From assembly GCF_013315695.1 (NCBI RefSeq), contig NZ_CP054353.1: DNA of 64,000 nucleotides, one strand, 5' to 3'. The notes below the pieces were generated by a model, which was given only the letters and a program-made list of their open reading frames with translations, searched no databases and had not been told where the DNA came from. The DNA is from Escherichia coli (GTDB taxonomy: Bacteria; Pseudomonadota; Gammaproteobacteria; Enterobacterales; Enterobacteriaceae). Shown here in pieces: positions 25,839 through 37,192 of the stretch (its first letter is position 1; every line of letters begins with the position of its first letter). A program made the position numbers and the translations under genes.

Positions 25839-26407
25839 AAACGGGGGCTGAAGCCATCCGGGCACTGGCCACACAGCTCCCGGCGTTTCGTCAGAAACTG
25901 AGCGACGGCTGGTATCAGGTACGGATTGCCGGGCGGGACGTCAGCACGTCCGGGTTAACGGCGCAGTTACATGAGACTCTGCCTGATGGCGCTGTGATTC
26001 ATATTGTTCCCAGAGTCGCCGGGGCCAAGTCAGGTGGCGTATTCCAGATTGTCCTGGGGGCTGCCGCCATTGCCGGATCATTCTTTACCGCCGGAGCCAC
26101 CCTTGCAGCATGGGGGGCAGCCATTGGGGCCGGTGGTATGACCGGCATCCTGTTTTCTCTCGGTGCCAGTATGGTGCTCGGTGGTGTGGCGCAGATGCTG
26201 GCACCGAAAGCCAGAACTCCCCGTACACAGACAACGGATAACGGTAAGCAGAACACCTATTTCTCCTCACTGGATAACATGGTTGCCCAGGGCAATGTTC
26301 TGCCTGTTCTGTACGGGGAAATGCGCGTGGGGTCACGCGTGGTTTCTCAGGAGATCAGCACGGCAGACGAAGGGGACGGTGGTCAGGTTGTGGTGATTGG
26401 TCGCTGA
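25736..26407 (+). CDS. I: Tail tip assembly protein I
   Basis: 223 aa, lambda gpI; overlaps the K 3' end. Confidence 0.85.
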   Translation: MAATHTLPLASPGMARICLYGDLQRFGRRIDLRVKTGAEAIRALATQLPAFRQKLSDGWYQVRIAGRDVSTSGLTAQLHETLPDGAVIHIVPRVAGAKSGGVFQIVLGAAAIAGSFFTAGATLAAWGAAIGAGGMTGILFSLGASMVLGGVAQMLAPKARTPRTQTTDNGKQNTYFSSLDNMVAQGNVLPVLYGEMRVGSRVVSQEISTADEGDGGQVVVIGR

Positions 26408-26467
26408 TGCAAAATGTTTTATGTGAAACCGCCTGCGGGCGGTTTTGTCATTTATGGAGCGTGAGGA

Positions 26468-29400
26468 ATGGGTAAAGGAAGCAGTAAGGGGCATACCCCG
26501 CGCGAAGCGAAGGACAACCTGAAGTCCACGCAGTTGCTGAGTGTGATCGATGCCATCAGCGAAGGGCCGGTTGAAGGTCCGGTGGATGGATTAAAAAGCG
26601 TGCTGCTGAACAGTACGCCGGTGCTGGACACTGAGGGGAATACCAACATCTCCGGTGTCACGGTGGTGTTCCGTGCCGGTGAGCAGGAGCAGACACCGCC
26701 GGAGGGGTTTGAATCCTCCGGCTCCGAGACGGTGCTGGGTACGGAAGTGAAATATGACACGCCGATCACCCGCACCATTACGTCTGCAAACATCGACCGT
26801 CTGCGCTTTACCTTCGGTGTACAGGCACTGGTGGAAACCACCTCAAAGGGTGACAGGAATCCGTCGGAAGTCCGTCTGCTGGTTCAGATACAACGTAACG
26901 GTGGCTGGGTGACGGAAAAAGACATCACCATTAAGGGCAAAACCACCTCGCAGTATCTGGCCTCGGTGGTGGTGGGTAACCTGCCGCCGCGCCCGTTTAA
27001 TATCCGGATGCGCAGGATGACGCCGGACAGCACCACAGACCAGCTGCAGAACAAAACGCTCTGGTCGTCATACACCGAAATCATCGATGTGAAACAGTGC
27101 TACCCGAACACGGCACTGGTCGGCGTGCAGGTGGACTCGGAGCAGTTCGGCAGCCAGCAGGTGAGCCGTAATTATCATCTTCGCGGGCGCATTCTGCAGG
27201 TGCCGTCGAACTATAACCCGCAGACGCGGCAATACAGCGGTATCTGGGACGGAACGTTTAAGCCGGCATACAGCAACAACCCGGCCTGGTGTCTGTGGGA
27301 TATGCTGACCCACCCGCGCTACGGCATGGGGAAACGTCTTGGTGCGGCGGATGTGGATAAATGGGCGCTGTATGTCATCGGCCAGTACTGCGACCAGTCA
27401 GTGCCGGACGGTTTTGGCGGCACGGAGCCGCGCATCACCTGTAATGCCTGGCTGACCACGCAGCGTAAGGCGTGGGATGTGCTCAGTGATTTCTGCTCGG
27501 CGATGCGCTGTATGCCGGTATGGAACGGGCAGACGCTGACGTTCGTGCAGGACCGACCATCAGATAAGGTGTGGACCTATAACCGCAGTAATGTGGTGAT
27601 GCCGGATGATGGCGCGCCGTTCCGCTACAGCTTCAGCGCCCTGAAGGACCGCCATAATGCCGTTGAGGTGAACTGGATTGACCCGAACAACGGCTGGGAG
27701 ACGGCGACAGAGCTTGTTGAAGATACGCAGGCCATTGTCCGTTACGGTCGTAATGTCACGAAGATGGATGCCTTTGGCTGTACCAGCCGGGGGCAGGCAC
27801 ACCGCGCCGGGCTGTGGCTGATTAAAACTGAACTGCTGGAGACGCAGACCGTGGATTTCAGCGTGGGTGCTGAAGGGCTTCGCCATGTACCGGGCGATGT
27901 CATTGAAATCTGCGATGATGACTATGCCGGTATCAGCACCGGTGGTCGCGTGCTGGCGGTGAACAGCCAGACCCGGACGCTGACGCTCGACCGTGAAATC
28001 ACGCTGCCATCCTCCGGTACCACGCTGATAAGCCTGGTTGACGGAAGTGGTAATCCGGTCAGCGTGGAGGTTCAGTCCGTCACCGACGGACTTAAGGTGA
28101 AAGTGAACCGGGTTCCTGACGGCGTTGCAGAATACAGTGTGTGGGGGCTGAAGTTGCCGACGTTGCGTCAGCGCCTGTTCCGCTGTGTGAGTATCCGTGA
28201 GAACGATGACGGCACGTATGCCATCACTGCCGTGCAGCATGTACCGGAAAAAGAAGCCATCGTGGATAACGGGGCGCACTTTGACGGCGACCAGAGCGGC
28301 ACGGTGAATGGTGTCACGCCGCCAGCGGTGCAGCACCTGACCGCCGAAGTCACCGCAGACAGCGGGGAATATCAGGTGCTGGCGCGCTGGGACACGCCGA
28401 AGGTGGTGAAGGGCGTGAGCTTCCTGCTCCGTCTGACCGTAACAGCGGATGACGGCAGTGAGCGGCTGGTCAGCACGGCCCGGACGACGGAAACCACATA
28501 CCGCTTCACGCAACTGGCGCTGGGGAACTACAGACTGACAGTCCGGGCGGTAAATGCGTGGGGGCAGCAGGGCGATCCGGCGTCGGTATCGTTCCGGATT
28601 GCCGCACCGGCAGCACCGTCGAGGATTGAGCTGACGCCGGGCTATTTTCAGATAACCGCCACGCCGCATCTTGCCGTTTATGACCCGACGGTACAGTTTG
28701 AGTTCTGGTTCTCGGAAAAGCGGATTACCGATATCAGGCAGGTTGAAACCACAGCCCGCTATCTTGGTACGGCGCTGTACTGGATAGCCGCCAGTATCAA
28801 TATCAAACCGGGCCATGATTATTACTTTTATATCCGCAGTGTGAACACCGTTGGCAAATCGGCATTCGTGGAGGCTGTCGGTCAGGCGAGCGATGATGCG
28901 GAAGGTTACCTGGATTTTTTCAAAGGCCAGATAACCGAATCCCATCTCGGCAAGGAGCTGCTGGAAAAAGTCGAGCTGACGGAGGATAACGCCAGCAGAC
29001 TGGAGGAGTTTTCGAAAGAGTGGCAGGACGCTAACGATAAGTGGAATGCCATGTGGGGCGTCAAAATTGAGCAGACCAAAGACGGCAAACATTATGTCGC
29101 GGGTATTGGCCTCAGCATGGAGGACACGGAAGAAGGCAAGCTGAGCCAGTTTCTGGTTGCCGCTAACCGTATCGCGTTTATTGACCCGGCAAACGGGAAT
29201 GAAACGCCGATGTTTGTGGCGCAGGGCAATCAGATATTTATGAACGACGTGTTCCTGAAGCGCCTGACGGCCCCGACCATTACCAGTGGTGGAAATCCAC
29301 CGGCATTTTCCCTGACATCAGACGGAAAGCTGACCGCTAAAAATGCGGATATCAGTGGCAGAGTGAATGCGAACGCCGGGACGCTCAACAATGTCACGGT

Positions 29401-29881
29401 AAATGAAAACTGTACGATTAAGGGCATGCTGGAGGCGACTCAGGTCAGAGGTGACTTCGTTAAAGCTGTATCCAAATCATTCCCGAAACAGGCTGGTACG
29501 TGGGGTAACACGGAAACACCAAACGGGACGGTTACAGTCACCATCAGCGATGATCATAACTTTGACCGTCAAATCATTATTCCGCCCATTATCTTTAACG
29601 GAATAGCGTATAGCGATCCGGGAAGTGGTAATAACCCGGGAGGTACAAGATACACGGGTTATGGTTTTGAAGTTCGCAAAAACGGTGTATTAATCGCATC
29701 CAGAGAAACTAAAGGGGCCATTCCCGGTAGCTACAGTGCGGTTATTGATATGCCGAGTGGCAGGGGAAGCGTCACTCTGGAGTTTAAGGTTTTCCATAAA
29801 GGCAATCAGTGGGCAGGTAATATCACCGACTGTACGGTGATTGTGACCAAAAAAGCCGCTTCCGGCATCAGTATTCGTTGA
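26468..29881 (+). CDS. J: Central tail fibre / host-specificity protein J
   Basis: 1137 aa, lambda gpJ; the C-terminal ~150 codons are visibly lower in GC. Confidence 0.9.
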
Positions 29882-29950: not shown

Positions 29951-30550
29951 ATGCGTAAACTTTATGCCGCCATTTTGTCCGCAGCCATTTGTCTGGCCGT
30001 ATCCGGTGCGCCTGCATGGGCATCTGAACATCAGTCCACGCTGAGCGCGGGGTATCTTCATGCCCGGACCAACGTTCCCGGCAGTGATGATCTGAACGGG
30101 ATTAACGTGAAATACCGTTATGAGTTTACGGATACGCTGGGGCTGGTGACGTCATTCAGCTATGCAGGAGACAAGAATCGCCAGCTGACCCGTTACAGCG
30201 ATACCAGCTGGCATGAAGATTCCGTGCGTAACCGCTGGTTCAGCGTGATGGCGGGGCCGTCTGTGCGCGTGAATGAATGGTTCAGCGCGTATGCGATGGC
30301 GGGTATGGCTTACAGCCGTGTTTCGACTTTTTCCGGGGATTACCTTCGCGTAACTGACAACAAGGGGAAAACGCACGATGTGCTGACCGGAAGTGATGAC
30401 GGTCGCCACAGCAACACGTCTCTGGCGTGGGGGGCTGGCGTGCAGTTTAACCCGACCGAATCCGTGGCCATTGATATTGCTTATGAAGGTTCTGGCAGTG
30501 GTGACTGGCGCACTGACGGTTTCATCGTGGGTGTCGGTTATAAATTCTGA
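29951..30550 (+). CDS. lom: Lom outer-membrane protein (Ail/Lom family)
   Basis: Signal peptide MRKLYAAILSAAICLAVSGAPAWA, 8-strand barrel, C-terminal ..GFIVGVGYKF. Confidence 0.85.
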   Translation: MRKLYAAILSAAICLAVSGAPAWASEHQSTLSAGYLHARTNVPGSDDLNGINVKYRYEFTDTLGLVTSFSYAGDKNRQLTRYSDTSWHEDSVRNRWFSVMAGPSVRVNEWFSAYAMAGMAYSRVSTFSGDYLRVTDNKGKTHDVLTGSDDGRHSNTSLAWGAGVQFNPTESVAIDIAYEGSGSGDWRTDGFIVGVGYKF

Positions 30551-30576
30551 TTAGCCAGGTAACACAGTGTTATGAC

Positions 30577-30605
30577 AGCCCGCCGGTTCAGGTGGGCTTT
30601 TTTGT
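30577..30605 (+). terminator. Rho-independent terminator after lom
   Basis: agcccgcc-ggttca-ggtgggc followed by tttttt. Confidence 0.5.
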
Positions 30606-30614
30606 GGGGGGAAT

Positions 30615-33011
30615 ATGGCAGTAAAGATTTCAGGTGTACTGAAAGACGGCACAGGAAAACCGGTACAGAACTGCTCAATCCAGCTGAAAGCAAAACGTAA
30701 CAGCACCACGGTGGTAGTGAACACGCTGGCCTCAGAAAATCCGGATGAAGCCGGGCGTTACAGTATGGATGTTGAGTATGGCCAGTACAGCGTTATCCTG
30801 CTGGTTGAAGGTTTTTCGCCTTCACATGCCGGGACCATCACCGTGTATGAAGATTCTAAGCCGGGGACGCTGAATGATTTTCTCGGTGCCATGACGGAAG
30901 ATGATGTCATGCCGGAGGCATTGCGTCGTTTTGAGGAAATGGTGGAAGAAGCGGCACGCAACGCTGAAGCCGCCTCTCAGAGCGCAGCGGCGGCAAAGAA
31001 ATCCGAAACTGCAGCGGCATCATCGAAGAACGCGGCGAAAACCTCAGAAACGAATGCAGCTAATAGTGCACAGGCGGCAGCGACCTCAAAGACTGCATCG
31101 GCAAACTCCGCGACAGCAGCCAAAAAATCAGAAACCAACGCGAAAAATAGCGAGACAGCCGCAAAGACGAGCGAAACCAACGCAAAGTCCAGCCAGACGG
31201 CAGCGAAAACCAGCGAAACGAATGCCAAAGCCAGTGAAACTGCGGCAAAAAACAGCCAGGTTGCAGCAGCCCAAAGCGAGAGCGCGGCAGCCGGTTCTGC
31301 GACTTCAGCAGCTGGATCAGCAACTGCTGCGGCTAACAGCCAGAAAGCTGCGAAGACGAGTGAAACTAACGCAAAGTCCAGCCAGACGGCAGCGAAGACC
31401 AGCGAAACGAATGCCAAAGCCAGCGAAACTGCGGCGAAAAACAGTCAGGATGCAGCAGCCCAAAGCGAGAGTGCTGCAGCTGGTTCTGCAAGCGCGGCGG
31501 CTGCTTCTGCCACTGCATCAGCCAACAGTCAAAAAGCAGCAAAAACCAGTGAAACCAATGCAAAGACAAGCGAGACTGCAGCGGCGAACTCGGCGAAAGC
31601 ATCGGCAGCAAGCCAGACAGCAGCTAAAGCAAGTGAAGACGCAGCCAGAGAGTATGCAAGTCAGGCAGCAGAGCCGTATAAATATGTCTTACAGCCACTG
31701 CCTGATGTGTGGATACCGTTTAACGATTCACTGGATATGATTACGGGCTTTTCGCCGTCATATAAAAAAATTGTTATTGGTGATGATGAAATAACGATGC
31801 CTGGCGACAAGGTTGTTAAGTTTAAACGCGCATCAACTGCCACATATATCAATAAATCAGGCGTATTTAGTGTTGCTAAAATTGATGAGCCACGATTTGA
31901 AAAAGAAGGTTTATTGATTGAAGGACAGCGCACTAACTATTTTGTTAAATCCAATACTCCCGCTGAATGGACGAGTACCAGCAATATCGATAAAACTAAT
32001 AATGGTGTTGATGAATTTGGTTTTTCATATGCCAAAATGCGAACAAAAGATAATATGACAGGACAATCATCTGCACTTAGTCTGCATACATGCAGTGCAT
32101 CCCGGGGGATTGATGTTAGTGGCGATAATAAGTATTGCACTGTTTCATGCAGGGTTAAAGCTCCTGATGGTCTTCGTTGTCGTTTGCGTTTTGAAAAATA
32201 CGATGGGTCGGTTTATACATTTTTAGGAGATGCTTATTTAACTTTCGGAACTCTGATAATAGAAAAAACTGGCGGAGCAGCCAATAGAATAGCAGCTACT
32301 GCAACTAAAGATCCGGTTACAGGGTGGATTTTCTATGAGGCAACTATAGAAGCTGTTGAAGGTGAAACCTTAATTGGCGCAATGATTCAGTATGCGCCGA
32401 AAAAAGGTGGTATAACTGAAGCGGGAGATTATATTTACCTTGCAACACCACAATTTGAAAACGGCGGATGTGCTTCATCTTTTGTTATTACGACAACTGC
32501 ACCCGCAACCCGCTCCAGTGATATGGTGACGATCCCAACTGAAAATAATATCTATAATAGACCGCTTACGTGTCTTGTCGAGGTTAATAGAAATTGGGGC
32601 GATATTCCTCCTAATGTAGCACCGCGTATTTTTGATTTTTCTGGTGTGCCACCTATTGAGTCAATTACATACGCTTTTAACACAACTGAGAAATATTACG
32701 GTCAGCTTTATATGCAAACTTATAAAGCGTCGACAAGTACTTACGTTTCTAGTGTGTTTGCTGGTCGAGCTGATGTTCGAAAATTCATTGGTGGTTTTAA
32801 TATTTATTCTGATGGTACTAAACGAGTAGTTTCTAACGGTGAGGCTACTAAAACTATGAAAACGGAGTGGACGGGCGTAAAAACACGGACCTTTATTCGA
32901 ATTGGAGGTCAAGCCACATCGGGAACTCGTCATCTATTCGGCCATTTGAGAAATCTTCGTCTCTGGCATAAAGAATTAACTGATGCGCAAATGGGGGAGA
33001 GTATTAAATGA
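30615..33011 (+). CDS. stf: Side tail fibre Stf, intact single ORF; lambda-type N-terminus and repeats, divergent low-GC C-terminal domain
   Basis: 798 aa; N-terminus MAVKISGVLKDGTGKPVQNCSIQLKA..; Ser/Ala/Thr/Lys repeats; C-terminus ends ..GHLRNLRLWHKELTDAQMGESIK, resembling LamG/ConA-like lectin domain ends. Confidence 0.8.
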   Translation: MAVKISGVLKDGTGKPVQNCSIQLKAKRNSTTVVVNTLASENPDEAGRYSMDVEYGQYSVILLVEGFSPSHAGTITVYEDSKPGTLNDFLGAMTEDDVMPEALRRFEEMVEEAARNAEAASQSAAAAKKSETAAASSKNAAKTSETNAANSAQAAATSKTASANSATAAKKSETNAKNSETAAKTSETNAKSSQTAAKTSETNAKASETAAKNSQVAAAQSESAAAGSATSAAGSATAAANSQKAAKTSETNAKSSQTAAKTSETNAKASETAAKNSQDAAAQSESAAAGSASAAAASATASANSQKAAKTSETNAKTSETAAANSAKASAASQTAAKASEDAAREYASQAAEPYKYVLQPLPDVWIPFNDSLDMITGFSPSYKKIVIGDDEITMPGDKVVKFKRASTATYINKSGVFSVAKIDEPRFEKEGLLIEGQRTNYFVKSNTPAEWTSTSNIDKTNNGVDEFGFSYAKMRTKDNMTGQSSALSLHTCSASRGIDVSGDNKYCTVSCRVKAPDGLRCRLRFEKYDGSVYTFLGDAYLTFGTLIIEKTGGAANRIAATATKDPVTGWIFYEATIEAVEGETLIGAMIQYAPKKGGITEAGDYIYLATPQFENGGCASSFVITTTAPATRSSDMVTIPTENNIYNRPLTCLVEVNRNWGDIPPNVAPRIFDFSGVPPIESITYAFNTTEKYYGQLYMQTYKASTSTYVSSVFAGRADVRKFIGGFNIYSDGTKRVVSNGEATKTMKTEWTGVKTRTFIRIGGQATSGTRHLFGHLRNLRLWHKELTDAQMGESIK
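31179..31556 (+). repeat. Two tandem ~189-bp copies (63 codons each) inside stf
   Basis: aacgcaaagtccagccagacggcagcgaa... recurs at 31179 and 31368 at ~90% identity. Confidence 0.7.
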
Positions 33012-33289
33012 AAGATTTAACACTCAAATTTGCAGACAGGGCCGACTTTTCGGCCTTTATGGAGAGCATTGGCTATTATGATGACGAGTCGATGCAGGAT
33101 GATATTCTTATTGACGTGATAGGTAATGTGTACAAAGAAACCGGAGAACTTACTGAAGATGGCGAGCCGGTATGTGTTAAGGAGGACGGATATTTTGTAA
33201 ATGTGCGCATCATTAATGATTCGCAAATATCGTCATTATTCGATGAATACGTGGTTGCTGTTGAGCATCAACTCCGTAGCTGGATGTGA
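33008..33289 (+). CDS. Hypothetical highly acidic 93-aa protein, translationally coupled to stf
   Basis: ATGA overlap with the stf stop; D/E-rich; no recognisable family. Confidence 0.45.
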   Translation: MKDLTLKFADRADFSAFMESIGYYDDESMQDDILIDVIGNVYKETGELTEDGEPVCVKEDGYFVNVRIINDSQISSLFDEYVVAVEHQLRSWM

Positions 33290-33298
33290 GGAAGAAAA

Positions 33299-34003
33299 AT
33301 GGCTACATCGACAGTAATTCCTGATGACATCAAAACGCTAAAGGGAGATGTCAGTAAGGCAAAGGAAGATATTTCCTCAATTAACGTAAAAGTATCAACG
33401 CTTCAGACTGATATGGACAGTGCAAAGCAGGATATCAGTACCAGATACACAAAAACAGAAGTGGATAATAAGCTGAAAAACAAAGTGGAAGTGAACGATC
33501 TGGAAAGTGGTCGTTATGGCGGAGATTTTTACCCGCTGACTGGCCGTGAAGCGTTTTATTTATGGGGATTGGGCACAACTACAGCGGCGGCAAATCTTTA
33601 TCTTAATCCTGACCCTGCAATTTCGTCTGTGCTGCGGTCAACATCGTCTATCCGCTATAAACATTCAGTAGAGACGATAGATTCAGAGCACGCCGATCTC
33701 ATTTTCAGGATGCGCCCTGTGTGGTACAGGTCGCAATGCGAAAATGACAGGCGTGACTGGGGATTCTATGGATTGATTGCCGAGGAAGTAGGAGAAATTG
33801 CCCCTCAGTTTGTTCACTGGCGACCAGCCAACGAAGATGATGCACCGGAAACCATTTCCAGCAATGGCCTTGTTGCCGAAGGTGTAATGTACGAACGTCT
33901 GGTTGTTCCACTGATTCACCATATCCAGAAACTGACTGAAAGAGTTGATGAACTTGAGTCAGAATTGAAGTTGTTATCAACTTCCCAAAGCGATATCGGA
34001 TAA
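33299..34003 (+). CDS. Short fibre-like protein: coiled-coil N-terminus plus C-terminal intramolecular-chaperone (peptidase S74-like) domain
   Basis: ..STSSIRYKHSVETID..LIFRMRPVWYR..GFYGLIAEEVGEIAPQFV..LVAEGVMYERLVVPLIHHIQKLTERVDELESEL.. Confidence 0.55.
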   Translation: MATSTVIPDDIKTLKGDVSKAKEDISSINVKVSTLQTDMDSAKQDISTRYTKTEVDNKLKNKVEVNDLESGRYGGDFYPLTGREAFYLWGLGTTTAAANLYLNPDPAISSVLRSTSSIRYKHSVETIDSEHADLIFRMRPVWYRSQCENDRRDWGFYGLIAEEVGEIAPQFVHWRPANEDDAPETISSNGLVAEGVMYERLVVPLIHHIQKLTERVDELESELKLLSTSQSDIG

Positions 34004-34013
34004 AGGAGGAGTA

Positions 34014-34307
34014 ATGGATATAACACCTTTTCTTCATGCGCTTTGTGCTGTGGCTGCGCAGGTAATGATTGGTCTTTTTGCCGGAAACTGGGTTTACGGG
34101 GCGATAGCCGGTTGTACGTTCTTCATTGCGCGTGAACACACCCAGGCAGAATATCGCTGGATTGAAATGTTCGGGCATGGCAAGTGGATTAACATGCCGT
34201 GGTGGGGCGGTTTTGATCCGCGTGTTTGGGATGTGGCAAGCCTGATAGATTTTGCTGTGCCGGTGGTGGCGTGTCTGCTGGTCTGGCTGTTGGTTAATCG
34301 TGGGTGA
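34014..34307 (+). CDS. Small predicted membrane protein (97 aa)
   Basis: Strong RBS aggagg; hydrophobic segments LHALCAVAAQVMIGLFAGNWVYGAIAGCTFFIA and LIDFAVPVVACLLVWLLV. Confidence 0.5.
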   Translation: MDITPFLHALCAVAAQVMIGLFAGNWVYGAIAGCTFFIAREHTQAEYRWIEMFGHGKWINMPWWGGFDPRVWDVASLIDFAVPVVACLLVWLLVNRG

Positions 34308-34317
34308 AAAAAGGTGA

Positions 34318-34446
34318 GCTGTATATGCAACGGAGGAAGAAACCCCGTTGCTGGAAGCCTGGAAAAAGTATCGGGTGTTGCTGAACCGTGTTGATACATC
34401 AACTGCACCTGATATTGAGTGGCCTACGAACCCTGTCAGGGAGTAA
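34318..34446 (+). pseudogene. 3' remnant of a tail fibre assembly gene (tfa)
   Basis: 42 codons ..[39 protein letters not shown] with an in-frame stop immediately upstream. Confidence 0.65.
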
Positions 34447-34500
34447 TCATTGGGATTATGCCGCAGCACGTCTTAAGCAAGAACGTGCTGCGGTTGGATG

Positions 34501-35169
34501 CTATTTTTTCCCTGAAGCGGAAAACATTACTACAGTACCTTGAACCTTGGTTTTAACATTCTCGAAATGCTCTGAGAGTATATGTGTTAAGCCTTCTTCG
34601 GAATCTTTTGTGTTTGAAAAGATGCCTTTCTGATTGTAAATGCGCATCAGTTTTTGACCGAAGCTATTGTGCACAACTCCATCGCCAAGAATTGTGGCTC
34701 CGTATAGAGTTCCATCGTCAGTTAAGGCCTGCGCCGCATTGCGTATTACACAGCTTTTTGTAGATATATTTCCAGGCAGGCAGTGAAGAAGGTAAAACAT
34801 GGAAATGGAATCAAATTGACCATGTAACGCCGCGGGATAAGGTTCAAAAACATCATGGCTAATTTTATGTTTAATTTTTGATTCCCCAGCCCTTGTAGAT
34901 GCCGCGTTCAGGCTAGCTTCGTTCAAATCCATTAAAGATATCAGACTACTCTCAGGTACGTGAGTAAGGTAAAACCCAGTTCCAACACCAATATCCAGAT
35001 GGTTGTTACCTAAATGTTCCAGAAAGTGTGGAAGAAGGTGTTCCTTTGTAGGACATCCCCATGCAAGCCGATTTGATACTCCCAAAACCCACCAGTCATA
35101 AAGCTTTAGGGTAAGTGGTGTGTAAATTTTAGCCCCATCATCTGTGTTTTTTTTCATTAATTTCACCAT
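34501..35169 (-). CDS. ybcY: Class I SAM-dependent methyltransferase (YbcY-like)
   Basis: Motif I ..HLDIGVGTGFY..; low GC; same position between tfa fragments as ybcY in DLP12. Confidence 0.7.
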   Translation of the reverse strand: MVKLMKKNTDDGAKIYTPLTLKLYDWWVLGVSNRLAWGCPTKEHLLPHFLEHLGNNHLDIGVGTGFYLTHVPESSLISLMDLNEASLNAASTRAGESKIKHKISHDVFEPYPAALHGQFDSISMFYLLHCLPGNISTKSCVIRNAAQALTDDGTLYGATILGDGVVHNSFGQKLMRIYNQKGIFSNTKDSEEGLTHILSEHFENVKTKVQGTVVMFSASGKK

Positions 35170-35225: not shown

Positions 35226-35524
35226 ATGCTGCCGCAGCATAGCGATATTGAAATAGCCTGGTATGCTTCGATACAGCAGGAGCCGAATGGCTGGAAGACC
35301 GTCACCACACAGTTCTACATCCAGGAATTCAGTGAGTATATTGCGCCACTGCAGGATGCTGGGAAATCGCAACGGAGGAAGAAAGATCGTTGCTGGAGGC
35401 ATGGAATAAATATCGGGTATTGTTGAATCATGTTGATACATCAGTAGCTCTGGGTATGAAGCTGTTTGTAACTCATGTTACAGTAACAGCCATTACTATC
35501 TCGAAGGTGCAAAATGTATATTGA
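35226..35524 (+). pseudogene. Frameshifted tfa fragment (tfaX-like)
   Basis: ..[10 protein letters not shown].. in one frame, then ..[27 protein letters not shown].. in another. Confidence 0.6.
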
Positions 35525-35710: not shown

Positions 35711-37192
35711 TTATATTTCTGCTTCAGAATTTCCTGGGCAGTATATATTTTCTATTTTTTGTGGAGTGATCAGGTGATGTACAACTGCTTTATCTACACA
35801 TAAATTAACTCCGGTGAGAGCTAATGTATGCCCATCACCATTTATTGTTAGTAACGGGCTGGAAAATTTCTCTGCCATCTTACGGGCATTAATCCAGGGC
35901 GTTGTTGGGTCGTATTTGTGTGCTACAAACAGTAAACCAGAGGGCAGAACAGTATTTTTCAGGCGAGTTTTGTTCAGGTCGCTATGTATTGGCCATAATT
36001 CACAAAAATCAGGTGAATCGGAACGTCCATTGTCAAAGTTAATAGCCGGGAAGGCATTCGCAAGAGCGTCTTTTCGGGATTTTCGCTCTTCTGGTGTTAA
36101 TTGCTCATCCCCCTGATCTACACAGAGGATTACCCCCGAAGCATCGCTTGACTCTTCTGAGGCTATCTGAGCACTGAGCGCAGTTTCAATTTCATTACTG
36201 ACAATCCCCTGAGAGAACTGGCGTATGGCAGTTGCAAGGGTTGGCCATGATGAACGCCATAGCAGAAGGTCTGTTGTTAATGATATGAGTTCATCTGAAG
36301 ATATATTTTCTCCCTTACTGTCTAATAAAGGTTTGTGATGTAATTTTGATAATAGCTCATGGAACTGAGTTATTGCCTTATCTCTGTCTGAAGAAAGCGG
36401 GCAACTTTTTGTACGCGCACACCAGGATGCAAAGCGATCAAACGTTTCCTGATAACTCTGTGCCTGTTTGAGTTGCCATGTGAAGTTGTCCTCCAGGTCA
36501 TCGATATCGACGACTCCATCAAGAACGATAGATCTTACGTTGTAGGGAAAACGTTCTGCATATAAGGCTGCAATTTGAGTTCCATACGAATACGCCACGG
36601 CTGTCAGTTGTTTATCCCCCAAGGCTTGCCTAATACGATCAATATCGTATACAGCCTCGTTAGAGCCGATATGGCGAATGACTTCGGCTCCGGTATTATG
36701 GATACAGGCATTAATTTTATTTAATACTTGTTGCTTTTCGGTTATGTTTTCCTGAGTCTCTGTATCTGATTGCCGGCAGTTTATTGTCGGAGTGGACTGT
36801 CCGACGCCTCGAGGATCAAATCCAATAATATCCCATGACTCACGAAGATTTGTGACTGGCCAGTCAAAGTTAATATAAGGATTTATGCCTGGTAACCCGG
36901 GACCACCACTTATTATCAGGATACTTCCTTTATGCTTGCTTTTTGCCGGCAATTTTGTCAACGCTAGTTTGACTTGTGATTTTTTTTCATAAGAAGCATC
37001 TCCGCCTGTGTCTGTATATTTTAATGGAACAGACAAATAACCACATAGTAAGTCAGGAGACGGTTTTTCCTCACCAAACCAGTGGTTGAATTGACTGGCC
37101 ATACAGGATTGCCACTGTATCTGCTGGGCAGATACGGTTACTGGTAGAAGTAACGTTAAAACAACTTTGAAATGAGTAATTATTTTTCGCAT
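35711..37192 (-). CDS. Secreted alpha/beta hydrolase (S33 / TAP-like peptidase family)
   Basis: Signal peptide MRKIITHFKVVLTLLLPVTVSA; nucleophile elbow AYSYGT; C-terminal ..TINGDGHTLALTG..; low GC. Confidence 0.7.
   Translation of the reverse strand: MRKIITHFKVVLTLLLPVTVSAQQIQWQSCMASQFNHWFGEEKPSPDLLCGYLSVPLKYTDTGGDASYEKKSQVKLALTKLPAKSKHKGSILIISGGPGLPGINPYINFDWPVTNLRESWDIIGFDPRGVGQSTPTINCRQSDTETQENITEKQQVLNKINACIHNTGAEVIRHIGSNEAVYDIDRIRQALGDKQLTAVAYSYGTQIAALYAERFPYNVRSIVLDGVVDIDDLEDNFTWQLKQAQSYQETFDRFASWCARTKSCPLSSDRDKAITQFHELLSKLHHKPLLDSKGENISSDELISLTTDLLLWRSSWPTLATAIRQFSQGIVSNEIETALSAQIASEESSDASGVILCVDQGDEQLTPEERKSRKDALANAFPAINFDNGRSDSPDFCELWPIHSDLNKTRLKNTVLPSGLLFVAHKYDPTTPWINARKMAEKFSSPLLTINGDGHTLALTGVNLCVDKAVVHHLITPQKIENIYCPGNSEAEI

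Follow-up and report, generated by a model that had tools for sequence, protein, structure and literature searches.

Mosaic structure of a lambdoid side tail fibre in Escherichia coli: a lambda-type collar and shaft joined to a mobile, two-domain C-terminal cassette of putative glycan-binding function

The stf gene and its base composition

The subject of this study is stf, the side tail fibre gene of a lambdoid prophage carried in a 64,000-nucleotide stretch of Escherichia coli DNA (the window; RefSeq assembly GCF_013315695.1, contig NZ_CP054353.1). The gene, a mosaic, occupies 30615..33011 on the plus strand and lies after J and lom, at the same locus as the Stf/Tfa genes of Ur-lambda (orf-401, orf-314 and orf-194). 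It opens with an ATG, continues as a single unbroken frame of 798 amino acids (aa) and has the C-terminal end ...GHLRNLRLWHKELTDAQMGESIK. The list of open reading frames (ORFs) agrees with the first-pass annotation, made from the letters of the DNA, in which stf had been described as one uninterrupted ORF; in this respect the gene differs from that of laboratory lambda, which is frameshifted. The product matches the PHROG profile phrog_1419 (tail protein) practically from end to end (aa 1-797 on profile positions 1-793 of 793, E=0, 1426 bits), and the 'side tail fiber protein' gene of PhiR49_1 is identical to stf at 99.2% of nucleotides (nt). PhiR49_1 is a deposited complete phage genome with ECOR13 as its recorded host, and its 99% identity to the window over 11.9 kb speaks for the functionality of the element, as does the intact state of the allele in 226 complete genomes. 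Between lom and the stf ATG, at 30577-30598, a GC-rich terminator-like hairpin is followed by a T-run; this is a consensus match only, and a terminator and promoter scan of the region returned sites no more numerous than in shuffled sequence.

The base composition of stf is sharply divided. The first part, 30615-31679, has a GC content of 0.542 and a third-codon-position GC content (GC3) of 0.490, and the second, 31680-33011, has values of 0.398 and 0.275, an AT-richness matched by just 1% of all segments of the same length (1332 bp) in the 64 kb. In a 200-bp sliding window the GC content passes from 0.52-0.58 at 30.7-31.6 kb to 0.36-0.43 from 31.7 kb onwards, and the sharpest contrast between the left-hand and the right-hand side of any one point falls at 31678. 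The earlier observation that the gene becomes AT-rich from about 31.7 kb is borne out by these values. Of the low-GC range then proposed, 31680-33011, the start stands and the end does not, since the tract runs past stf to ~33.5 kb, taking in the next ORF and part of the one after it. The lambda-like, GC-rich portion is also smaller than had been thought, comprising aa 1-355, or 44% of the protein, and not its first two thirds.

The lambda-type collar and shaft

The N-terminal portion of Stf begins with a lambda-type collar or attachment domain (aa 1-131; 30615..31007, +), recognised by Pfam PF08400 phage_tail_N (E 1.2e-68), which is the sole domain seen when the whole protein is scanned with Pfam. 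A GC-rich coiled-coil shaft dominated by Ala, Ser, Thr and Lys, delimited by BLASTP to lambda orf-401 and by Tandem Repeats Finder (TRF), extends over aa ~102-355 (30918..31679, +). In the BLASTP comparison orf-401 is 62% identical to aa 1-286 of Stf, the first ~117 aa being near-identical and the remainder low-complexity shaft, so that both the PF08400 collar and the Ala/Ser/Thr-rich coiled coil are shared with Ur-lambda. The resemblance ends there: from aa ~360 onwards neither the hinge nor the gp37-like distal rod of lambda aligns with Stf, and comparison with orf-314, which encodes the distal half of the Ur-lambda fibre, gave no alignment (best E 2.0). Alignment of the C-terminus with lambda Stf, which the first-pass annotation had named as the result that would speak against a foreign origin, was accordingly not seen.

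At the level of DNA, the similarity of the window to lambda takes in J (26000-29437, 96.7%) and the end of lom together with the 5' end of stf (30423-30964, 87%); after 30964 it returns only at 34326-34495 (87%) and at 35319-35443. The gap between 30964 and 34326 implies that everything from the distal shaft through codon ~155 of tfa has been replaced relative to lambda. In the structure of Ur-lambda Stf the collar comprises residues 1-91, the proximal coiled coil residues 102-393 and the hinge residues 394-422 (PMC12617516), and since that coil spans 102-393, the junction at aa ~360 is placed near the end of the proximal coiled coil.

The Ser/Ala/Thr/Lys repeats noticed earlier in the shaft are resolved by TRF into a unit with a period of 189 bp, present in 2.3 copies at 31149-31583. 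In database alleles of 735 or 736 aa whose C-terminal module is identical, precisely aa 182-244 of Stf are missing, a segment that corresponds to one 189-bp (63-aa) repeat unit; the absence of one whole unit indicates that the length of the fibre varies by entire repeats. Two further ORFs lie within the shaft repeats, one in an alternative frame (30901-31740, +, 279 aa) and one antisense (30977-31417, -, 146 aa). They encode low-complexity strings rich in Arg/Gln/Pro or in Ala/Phe, parallel the dubious 'orf206b' annotated inside lambda orf-401 and most probably arise as artefacts of the repeats and their skewed composition.

The upstream gene J also departs from lambda at its end. Its last 147 aa (29438-29881) are only 36-41% identical to lambda-type J tips and 99-100% identical to the tips of ev099, an Stx2c phage and phi458, and from this divergence the second host-range determinant of the prophage is likewise a non-lambda allele.

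Edges and mobility of the C-terminal module

The low-GC part of Stf coincides with a mobile C-terminal module (aa 360-798, first residues QPLPDVW; 31692..33011, +) delimited by nt homology. Its left edge falls at 31694 in the comparison with the phage Lambda_4B5, at 31692 in that with an unrelated prophage, L011, and at 31678 by the change point in GC content. L011 (NCBI GCA_001615805.1, contig LVNQ01000095.1) has nt similarity to the window over exactly 31692-33021 and nowhere else, its version of the module being 83% identical in nt and 92% in aa and joined to an unrelated N-terminus. The layout of L011 is unlike that of lambda, with a GpA terminase, Portal_2 and a fused S78 protease-capsid protein, and its genome GC content is 0.42. 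L011 represents the kind of genome from which a lambda-type phage could have acquired the cassette.

The distribution of the module extends well beyond these examples. When the 443-aa C-terminal fragment of Stf was searched against 1.84 billion cluster representatives (50% identity clusters), 1,954 clusters matched at E<=1e-3. Among the 150 representatives listed, 90 cover the whole module from residue ~6 of the query (PLPDVW), and in all but one of these (89/90) the module ends within a few residues of the protein C-terminus. The anchors to which it is joined in the homologues are of at least five types, namely phage_tail_N, Phage_tail_fib, Tail_spike_N, Phage_fiber_2 and the N-terminus of the T7 tail fibre. 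In the phage collection the module is present in 218 records; its carriers include the lambda-like 2G7b, Lambda_4B5, ev017 and 1H12, T1-like Drexlerviridae, Dhillonvirus, Seuratvirus (JenP1/2), the T5-like IrisVonRoten and VSe12, and rV5-like myoviruses. In IrisVonRoten (Bas32), a virulent phage with a genome GC content of 0.39, Gp22 shares 50.7% identity with Stf 356-798 over its C-terminal 440 aa; its N-terminal anchor is of the T5 type.

A single module start in three comparisons, the variety of anchors and the reduction of tfa to 3' remnants (described below) all uphold the earlier proposal of a domain swap. Two amendments are needed. The unit exchanged is a multi-gene cassette rather than one domain, and it is foreign relative to lambda only, this type of allele being common in the lambdoid prophages of E. 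coli.

The GC content of the module sits 0.10-0.14 below that of its flanks in lambda-like phages, and its value in the window (0.40) agrees with that of its T5-like, T1-like and L011-type carrier genomes (0.39-0.43), an agreement that supports import from a phage lineage of lower GC content. It could be argued instead that the drop in GC content reflects nothing but amino-acid composition, an Ala-rich shaft being followed by a globular domain, or that the region is decaying prophage junk. A shaft rich in Ala, Ser and Thr (GCN and ACN codons) does indeed inflate GC content, and its GC3 is only 0.49. However, GC3 still falls from that value to 0.275, and the upstream neighbours J and lom have GC3 values of 0.66 and 0.60, from which it follows that the composition of the Ala-rich shaft cannot account for the shift in stf. 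Moreover, the compositional boundary coincides with the breakpoints in homology, and the GC content of the module is that expected from its carrier genomes. Decay, for its part, is contradicted by the intactness of all ORFs and by the 99% identity to PhiR49_1, a complete genome deposited with a named host. We consider a purely compositional or degenerative origin to be hardly credible.

Fold of the two domains

A family alignment of 90 sequences served both for structure prediction by AlphaFold2 and for the construction of profiles. The AlphaFold2 monomer model of the module is all-beta, with a predicted local distance difference test score (pLDDT) of 91.2 and a predicted template-modelling score (pTM) of 0.90, and the best Foldseek matches to it are Pa193 gp46, E217 gp45 and the tandem LG4-5 domains of laminin alpha2 (E 5.6e-6). 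In this model the module is made up of two beta-sandwich domains of the beta-jelly-roll fold, here termed D1 and D2. By hhalign the two show no similarity to each other (probability 0.2%), and this dissimilarity leaves a recent internal duplication of the sandwiches unsupported.

D1 (aa 434-634; 31914..32516, +) is a 'phage head spike fibre' beta-sandwich. NCBIfam NF048003, the 'phage head spike fibre domain' (GTA_spike_fiber), matches aa 434-634 with 58.1 bits against a curated cutoff of 36, and the family profile of this region (aa ~400-640) detects in the PDB the head spike fibre Rcc01080 of the Rhodobacter capsulatus gene transfer agent (RcGTA; E 1.9e-42), Pa193 gp46 and E217 gp45 (E 1.3e-20) and a tail fibre gp17 (9occ, E 1.3e-18). 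The family profile is needed for such a result, as a single-sequence search of PDB sequences returned a marginal match to the RcGTA fibre only (E 0.056). The homology of D1 to Rcc01080, itself a member of NF048003, includes the motifs FxRxSxATY...EPRF...LLxExxxTN and QxExGxxxSSxIxTxxxxxTRxxD. In contrast to Stf, Rcc01080 is a single chain carried on capsid pentons and not on a tail fibre, and the match extends no further than D1, ending at chain residue 281 of 325, no counterpart of D2 or LamG being detected in it; the PDB entry resolves residues 2-10 only, so that it provides no structure of D1 (PMC7296036). The Pa193 and E217 proteins (PDB 9b45 and 8env) are baseplate wedge proteins of PB1-like Pseudomonas myophages in which the domain homologous to D1 is an insertion in the baseplate triplex protein and for which a lectin function is not discussed (PMC11456595).

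D2 (aa 641-798, ending ...GHLRNLRLWHKELTDAQM; 32535..33008, +) is a LamG/pentraxin-type, concanavalin A-like (ConA-like) beta-sandwich. Its profile matches in the PDB an S-layer LamG-type protein (4qvs, E 2.6e-7), the Hc-N domain of botulinum neurotoxin D (BoNT/D; 0.0024), C-reactive protein (0.003) and CBM40 (0.006). In Pfam the signal emerged only from homologues or from the isolated last domain and not from the scan of the whole protein: Laminin_G_3 (PF13385) matches Stf aa 730-792 within the 443-aa fragment (E 0.0057, 17.3 bits) and matches D2 alone with E 8.9e-4 (19.9 bits, model positions 87-149 only). Of 30 D2 homologues examined with the same model, 14 match at E<=1e-3 and 28 at E<=0.1, and among the full-length homologues 38/90 match at E<=0.001 (best 1.9e-11). 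The first-pass annotation had likened the end ...GHLRNLRLWHKELTDAQM to LamG/ConA-like lectin domains, and it is this very stretch, aa 730-792, that Laminin_G_3 covers, with Foldseek in agreement. D2 has the same fold as the jelly rolls of LamG, the pentraxins and the clostridial neurotoxin Hc-N domain, and the similarity to them in sequence, though weak, is consistent and includes the terminal strand G-H-[IL]-R-N-x-R-[IL]-W-x-x-x-L-[TS]-x-x-Q; at ~10% identity and ~20 bits, however, their ligand-binding residues are not transferable to D2.

The ConA-like domains might instead be enzymes, glycan depolymerases or lyases with a beta-jelly roll of the glycoside hydrolase family 16 (GH16) or polysaccharide lyase (PL) type that digest O-antigen or capsule in the manner of tailspikes. 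We judge this very unlikely. A regular-expression search found the GH16 motif E-x-D-x-(x)-E nowhere in Stf, no hydrolase or lyase family was matched in Pfam, NCBIfam or PHROGs, and the best matches are to binding modules.

Conserved flanks and a hypervariable core

Conservation within the module is uneven. Its 5' part (aa 360-442; 31692..31940, +) is 84-91% identical in nt to 2G7b and Lambda_4B5, the homology stopping at 31939/31940, and has the lowest column entropy in the family alignment; it is a possible recombination anchor and junction between the shaft and the lobes. In the comparison with 2G7b, a related phage otherwise 90-98% identical to the window, identity is 91% up to 31939, no similarity is found over 31940-32892, identity returns at 90% over 32893-33342, is lost again over 33343-34012 and resumes at 98.6% from 34013. 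The first of the two divergent segments corresponds to a hypervariable core (aa ~443-759; 31940..32892, +). Outside the conserved stretches the column entropy of the family alignment is ~3 bits, and those stretches are PLPDVWIPFNDSL, FxRASTATYI...EPRFEKEGLLIEGQxTN, QxExGxxASSxIxTxxxxxTRxxD and GHxRNxRxWxxxLTDxQ. Conserved framework strands around a hypervariable core constitute the pattern expected of a specificity domain that is exchanged by homologous recombination, and from this pattern the core is likely to be the specificity determinant of the fibre.

The downstream cassette and the remnants of tfa

The ORF that follows stf encodes a 93-aa partner protein (33008..33289, +) and overlaps the stf stop codon (ATGA), an arrangement indicative of translational coupling. 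This gene is found directly downstream of the module in 183 phage records, and the two form an invariant pair; the fold of the 93-aa protein matched nothing informative. Next in order is a gene for a short distal-fibre protein of 234 aa (33299..34003, +) with a C-terminal S74 intramolecular chaperone domain (Pfam Peptidase_S74, aa 116-172, E 2.2e-5). The N-terminal motif of this protein, MATSTVIPDDIKTLK, is common to the distal fibres of 2G7b (345 aa), IrisVonRoten (Gp24, 574 aa) and tonn (224 aa), and in the general form M-A/V-T-x-T-x-IP-x-DI-x-x-LK it is common to lambda-like, T5-like and T1-like phages; the middle, receptor-binding part of the 2G7b, IrisVonRoten and tonn distal fibres is missing from the 234-aa protein. 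The trio of a module-ended fibre, a ~92-aa protein and an S74-bearing distal fibre occupies 31692-34003 of the window and bas32_0022-0024 of IrisVonRoten, where a 92-aa homologue of the 93-aa ORF is followed by a distal fibre that has this N-terminal motif and an S74 end as well, although this fibre, at 574 aa, has two receptor-binding domains and the 234-aa protein none that is recognisable. 2G7b, tonn and L011 show this order of genes too; in L011 (6001-9864) a fibre with its last 440 aa homologous to the module comes first, then a 92-aa partner gene and then an S74-bearing fibre of 366 aa. In Lambda_4B5, rolling (the record of which ends ~850 bp further on) and Gotham, no distal fibre gene is annotated beside the pair of module and 93-aa gene.

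These arrangements bear on a reading in which the module is mainly a socket for a separate distal fibre that bears the real specificity, Stf being the proximal half of a two-piece, branched side fibre and its lobes accessory; the N-terminal peptide of the distal fibre would be docked by the conserved portion of the module, possibly with the 93-aa protein as connector. The gene order is that of IrisVonRoten, with its proximal Gp22, 92-aa protein and T-shaped distal Gp24 with an intramolecular chaperone domain, for which AlphaFold-Multimer models put the distal fibre on the proximal one (PMC11990801); the N-terminal motif is shared by distal fibres of three kinds of phage, the second segment that varies with respect to 2G7b (33343-34012) falls in the distal-fibre gene, and the trio recurs in an unrelated prophage. 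On the other hand, the pair has no distal fibre gene annotated next to it in Lambda_4B5, in the Dhillonvirus rolling, subject to the early end of that record, and in the Vequintavirus Gotham. The 234-aa protein, once cut at the predicted ~Ser116, would keep ~115 aa without a recognisable receptor-binding domain, and the module's own core is hypervariable, as expected of a specificity determinant. The occurrence of the pair without an annotated distal fibre and the lack of a recognisable binding domain in the one present here lead us to regard the role of mere socket as doubtful. The branched LtfA/LtfB fibre of DT57C was considered as the closest analogue but rejected, since what stands at the end of LtfA is an S74 chaperone domain and not the module (PMC4728585).

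The cassette is closed by a gene for a predicted membrane protein of 97 aa (34014..34307, +; phrog_1443, function unknown) with hydrophobic N- and C-terminal segments. In 2G7b and Lambda_4B5, too, the fibre cassette is followed immediately by this ORF, which keeps its position with or without a distal fibre gene.

Beyond it lies what is left of tfa. A tblastn search with lambda Tfa identified a remnant of codons 156-194 at 34327..34443 (+; 87% over 39 aa) and a second 3' remnant, of codons 154-182, at 35363..35449 (+; 83% over 29 aa). Unlike Ur-lambda, the prophage has no functional tfa, only these two 3' remnants, and the first of them is, to judge by its sequence, the right-hand scar of the replacement. 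The two remnants bracket a minus-strand gene of 222 aa (34501-35169) that is methyltransferase-like (YbcY-like, with weak NCBIfam matches) and would seem to be a moron that was inserted where the end of tfa is duplicated. Further on, close to the prophage end and in a very AT-rich stretch (GC content 0.33-0.42), an ORF of 493 aa (35711-37192, -) has an N-terminal signal-like sequence and weak matches to alpha/beta hydrolases of the prolyl aminopeptidase type. In PhiR49_1 the equivalent region is followed by an omptin gene, and the ORF is probably lysogenic-conversion cargo.

Proposed function of the chimeric fibre

The explanation that we favour, and consider probable, is that Stf is a chimera of a lambda-type collar and shaft with a mobile, two-sandwich, lectin-like cassette that acts as a putative glycan binder together with its partner protein. 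Residues 1-355 are the collar domain and the trimeric coiled-coil shaft by which the fibre is mounted on the tail, and beyond ~360 a horizontally mobile cassette stands in place of lambda's hinge, its gp37-like distal rod and its tfa gene. In this picture the chimeric architecture and its boundaries, the two folds, the homologies, the linkage to the 93-aa gene and the variable core are shown, and glycan binding, the oligomeric arrangement and the roles of the 93-aa and 234-aa proteins are inferred. The core of the cassette is the 439-aa C-terminal module (D1 and D2) with its translationally coupled 93-aa partner, accompanied here by a second short fibre protein with a predicted self-cleaving S74 chaperone and by the small membrane protein. 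Ur-lambda has a 12-copy collar and four trimeric fibres, and the same presumably applies here (PMC12617516). If each Stf chain of the trimer ends in its own D1-D2 pair of lectin-like lobes, four such fibres would expose up to 24 low-affinity glycan-binding domains per virion.

The lobes would bind surface polysaccharide (O-antigen, capsule or LPS core) reversibly and non-enzymatically as the primary adsorption step, which would let the J tip then reach its terminal receptor. The predicted class of receptor is in this case a glycan, as opposed to the OmpC reported for Ur-lambda. Specificity would be set by the hypervariable core (aa ~443-759), and the flanks, 31692-31940 on one side and 32893 onwards into the 93-aa gene on the other, could serve as homology arms for the exchange of alleles. 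The 93-aa protein may serve specifically in the folding or assembly of the fibre, or may be a connector, and the distal fibre would dock by means of its conserved N-terminal peptide. These proposals are consistent with what is known of related systems: capsular polysaccharide is bound by the head spike fibre of RcGTA (PMC10218006; PMC7296036), the reversible first receptor of siphovirus lateral fibres is typically O-antigen or another glycan (PMC8594841), and in IrisVonRoten Gp22 the C-terminal part homologous to the module, which projects from the proximal fibre, has been called a 'galectin-like domain' and a possible extra receptor-binding domain (PMC11990801, Fig 12B legend). The Stf of Gifsy-1, which binds the LPS core, was considered as a model for the module and rejected, as it is of the Ur-lambda type and 50.65% identical to it overall (PMC12312913).

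Several points weigh against a glycan-binding fibre tip. Receptor binding by the module or its close homologues is argued by analogy; the Pfam Laminin_G_3 score of the Stf in the window is marginal (~17-20 bits); and the strictly conserved residues sit in framework strands and not at an obvious sugar site. The structure model, being a monomer, is silent on the arrangement of three chains at the end of the fibre. In addition, the separate distal fibre gene could mean that the main receptor binding takes place elsewhere, and the fibre may consist of two pieces, of which Stf would be the proximal one.

A broader and more speculative proposal, which we hold to be possible but unlikely, is that the lectin module and its 93-aa partner form a universal 'plug-and-socket' that crosses virion morphotypes, lambdoid side fibres being branched devices for two receptors. 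The same socket would then be present on lambda-like, T1-like, T5-like, Dhillon/Seurat-like, rV5-like and other tails and would accept interchangeable distal fibres through their conserved N-terminal peptide of ~15 residues, and the 93-aa protein would represent a new class of connector or chaperone.

Prevalence and significance

Alleles of this kind are widespread. Of 5,426 complete E. coli genomes, ~220, including O25b:H4-ST131, carry the exact allele of the C-terminal module (full length, >=99% nt identity), 226 match it over >=80% of its length, and 1,724 match some part of the module. In RefSeq, Stf is named 'prophage tail fiber N-terminal domain-containing protein' and fragments of it 'phage head spike fiber domain-containing protein'. 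The homologous domain has already been noted in the paper on the BASEL collection, and literature searches on PhiR49_1 and on LamG in conjunction with tail fibres returned nothing relevant. Stf is in this sense a real but already known kind of mosaic fibre, a product of ordinary, already catalogued tail-fibre shuffling.

Chimeric Stf has been used to change the host range of lambda-based delivery particles (PMC11338833), and for the engineering of such particles the edges of the module (31692, with the core at 31940-32892) and its obligatory 93-aa partner are useful information. For the biology of E. coli and its phages, the significance of the exchange is that the tips of side fibres decide to which strains a temperate phage can adsorb, and that this allele sits in the prophages of many clinical E. 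coli, those of ST131 among them.

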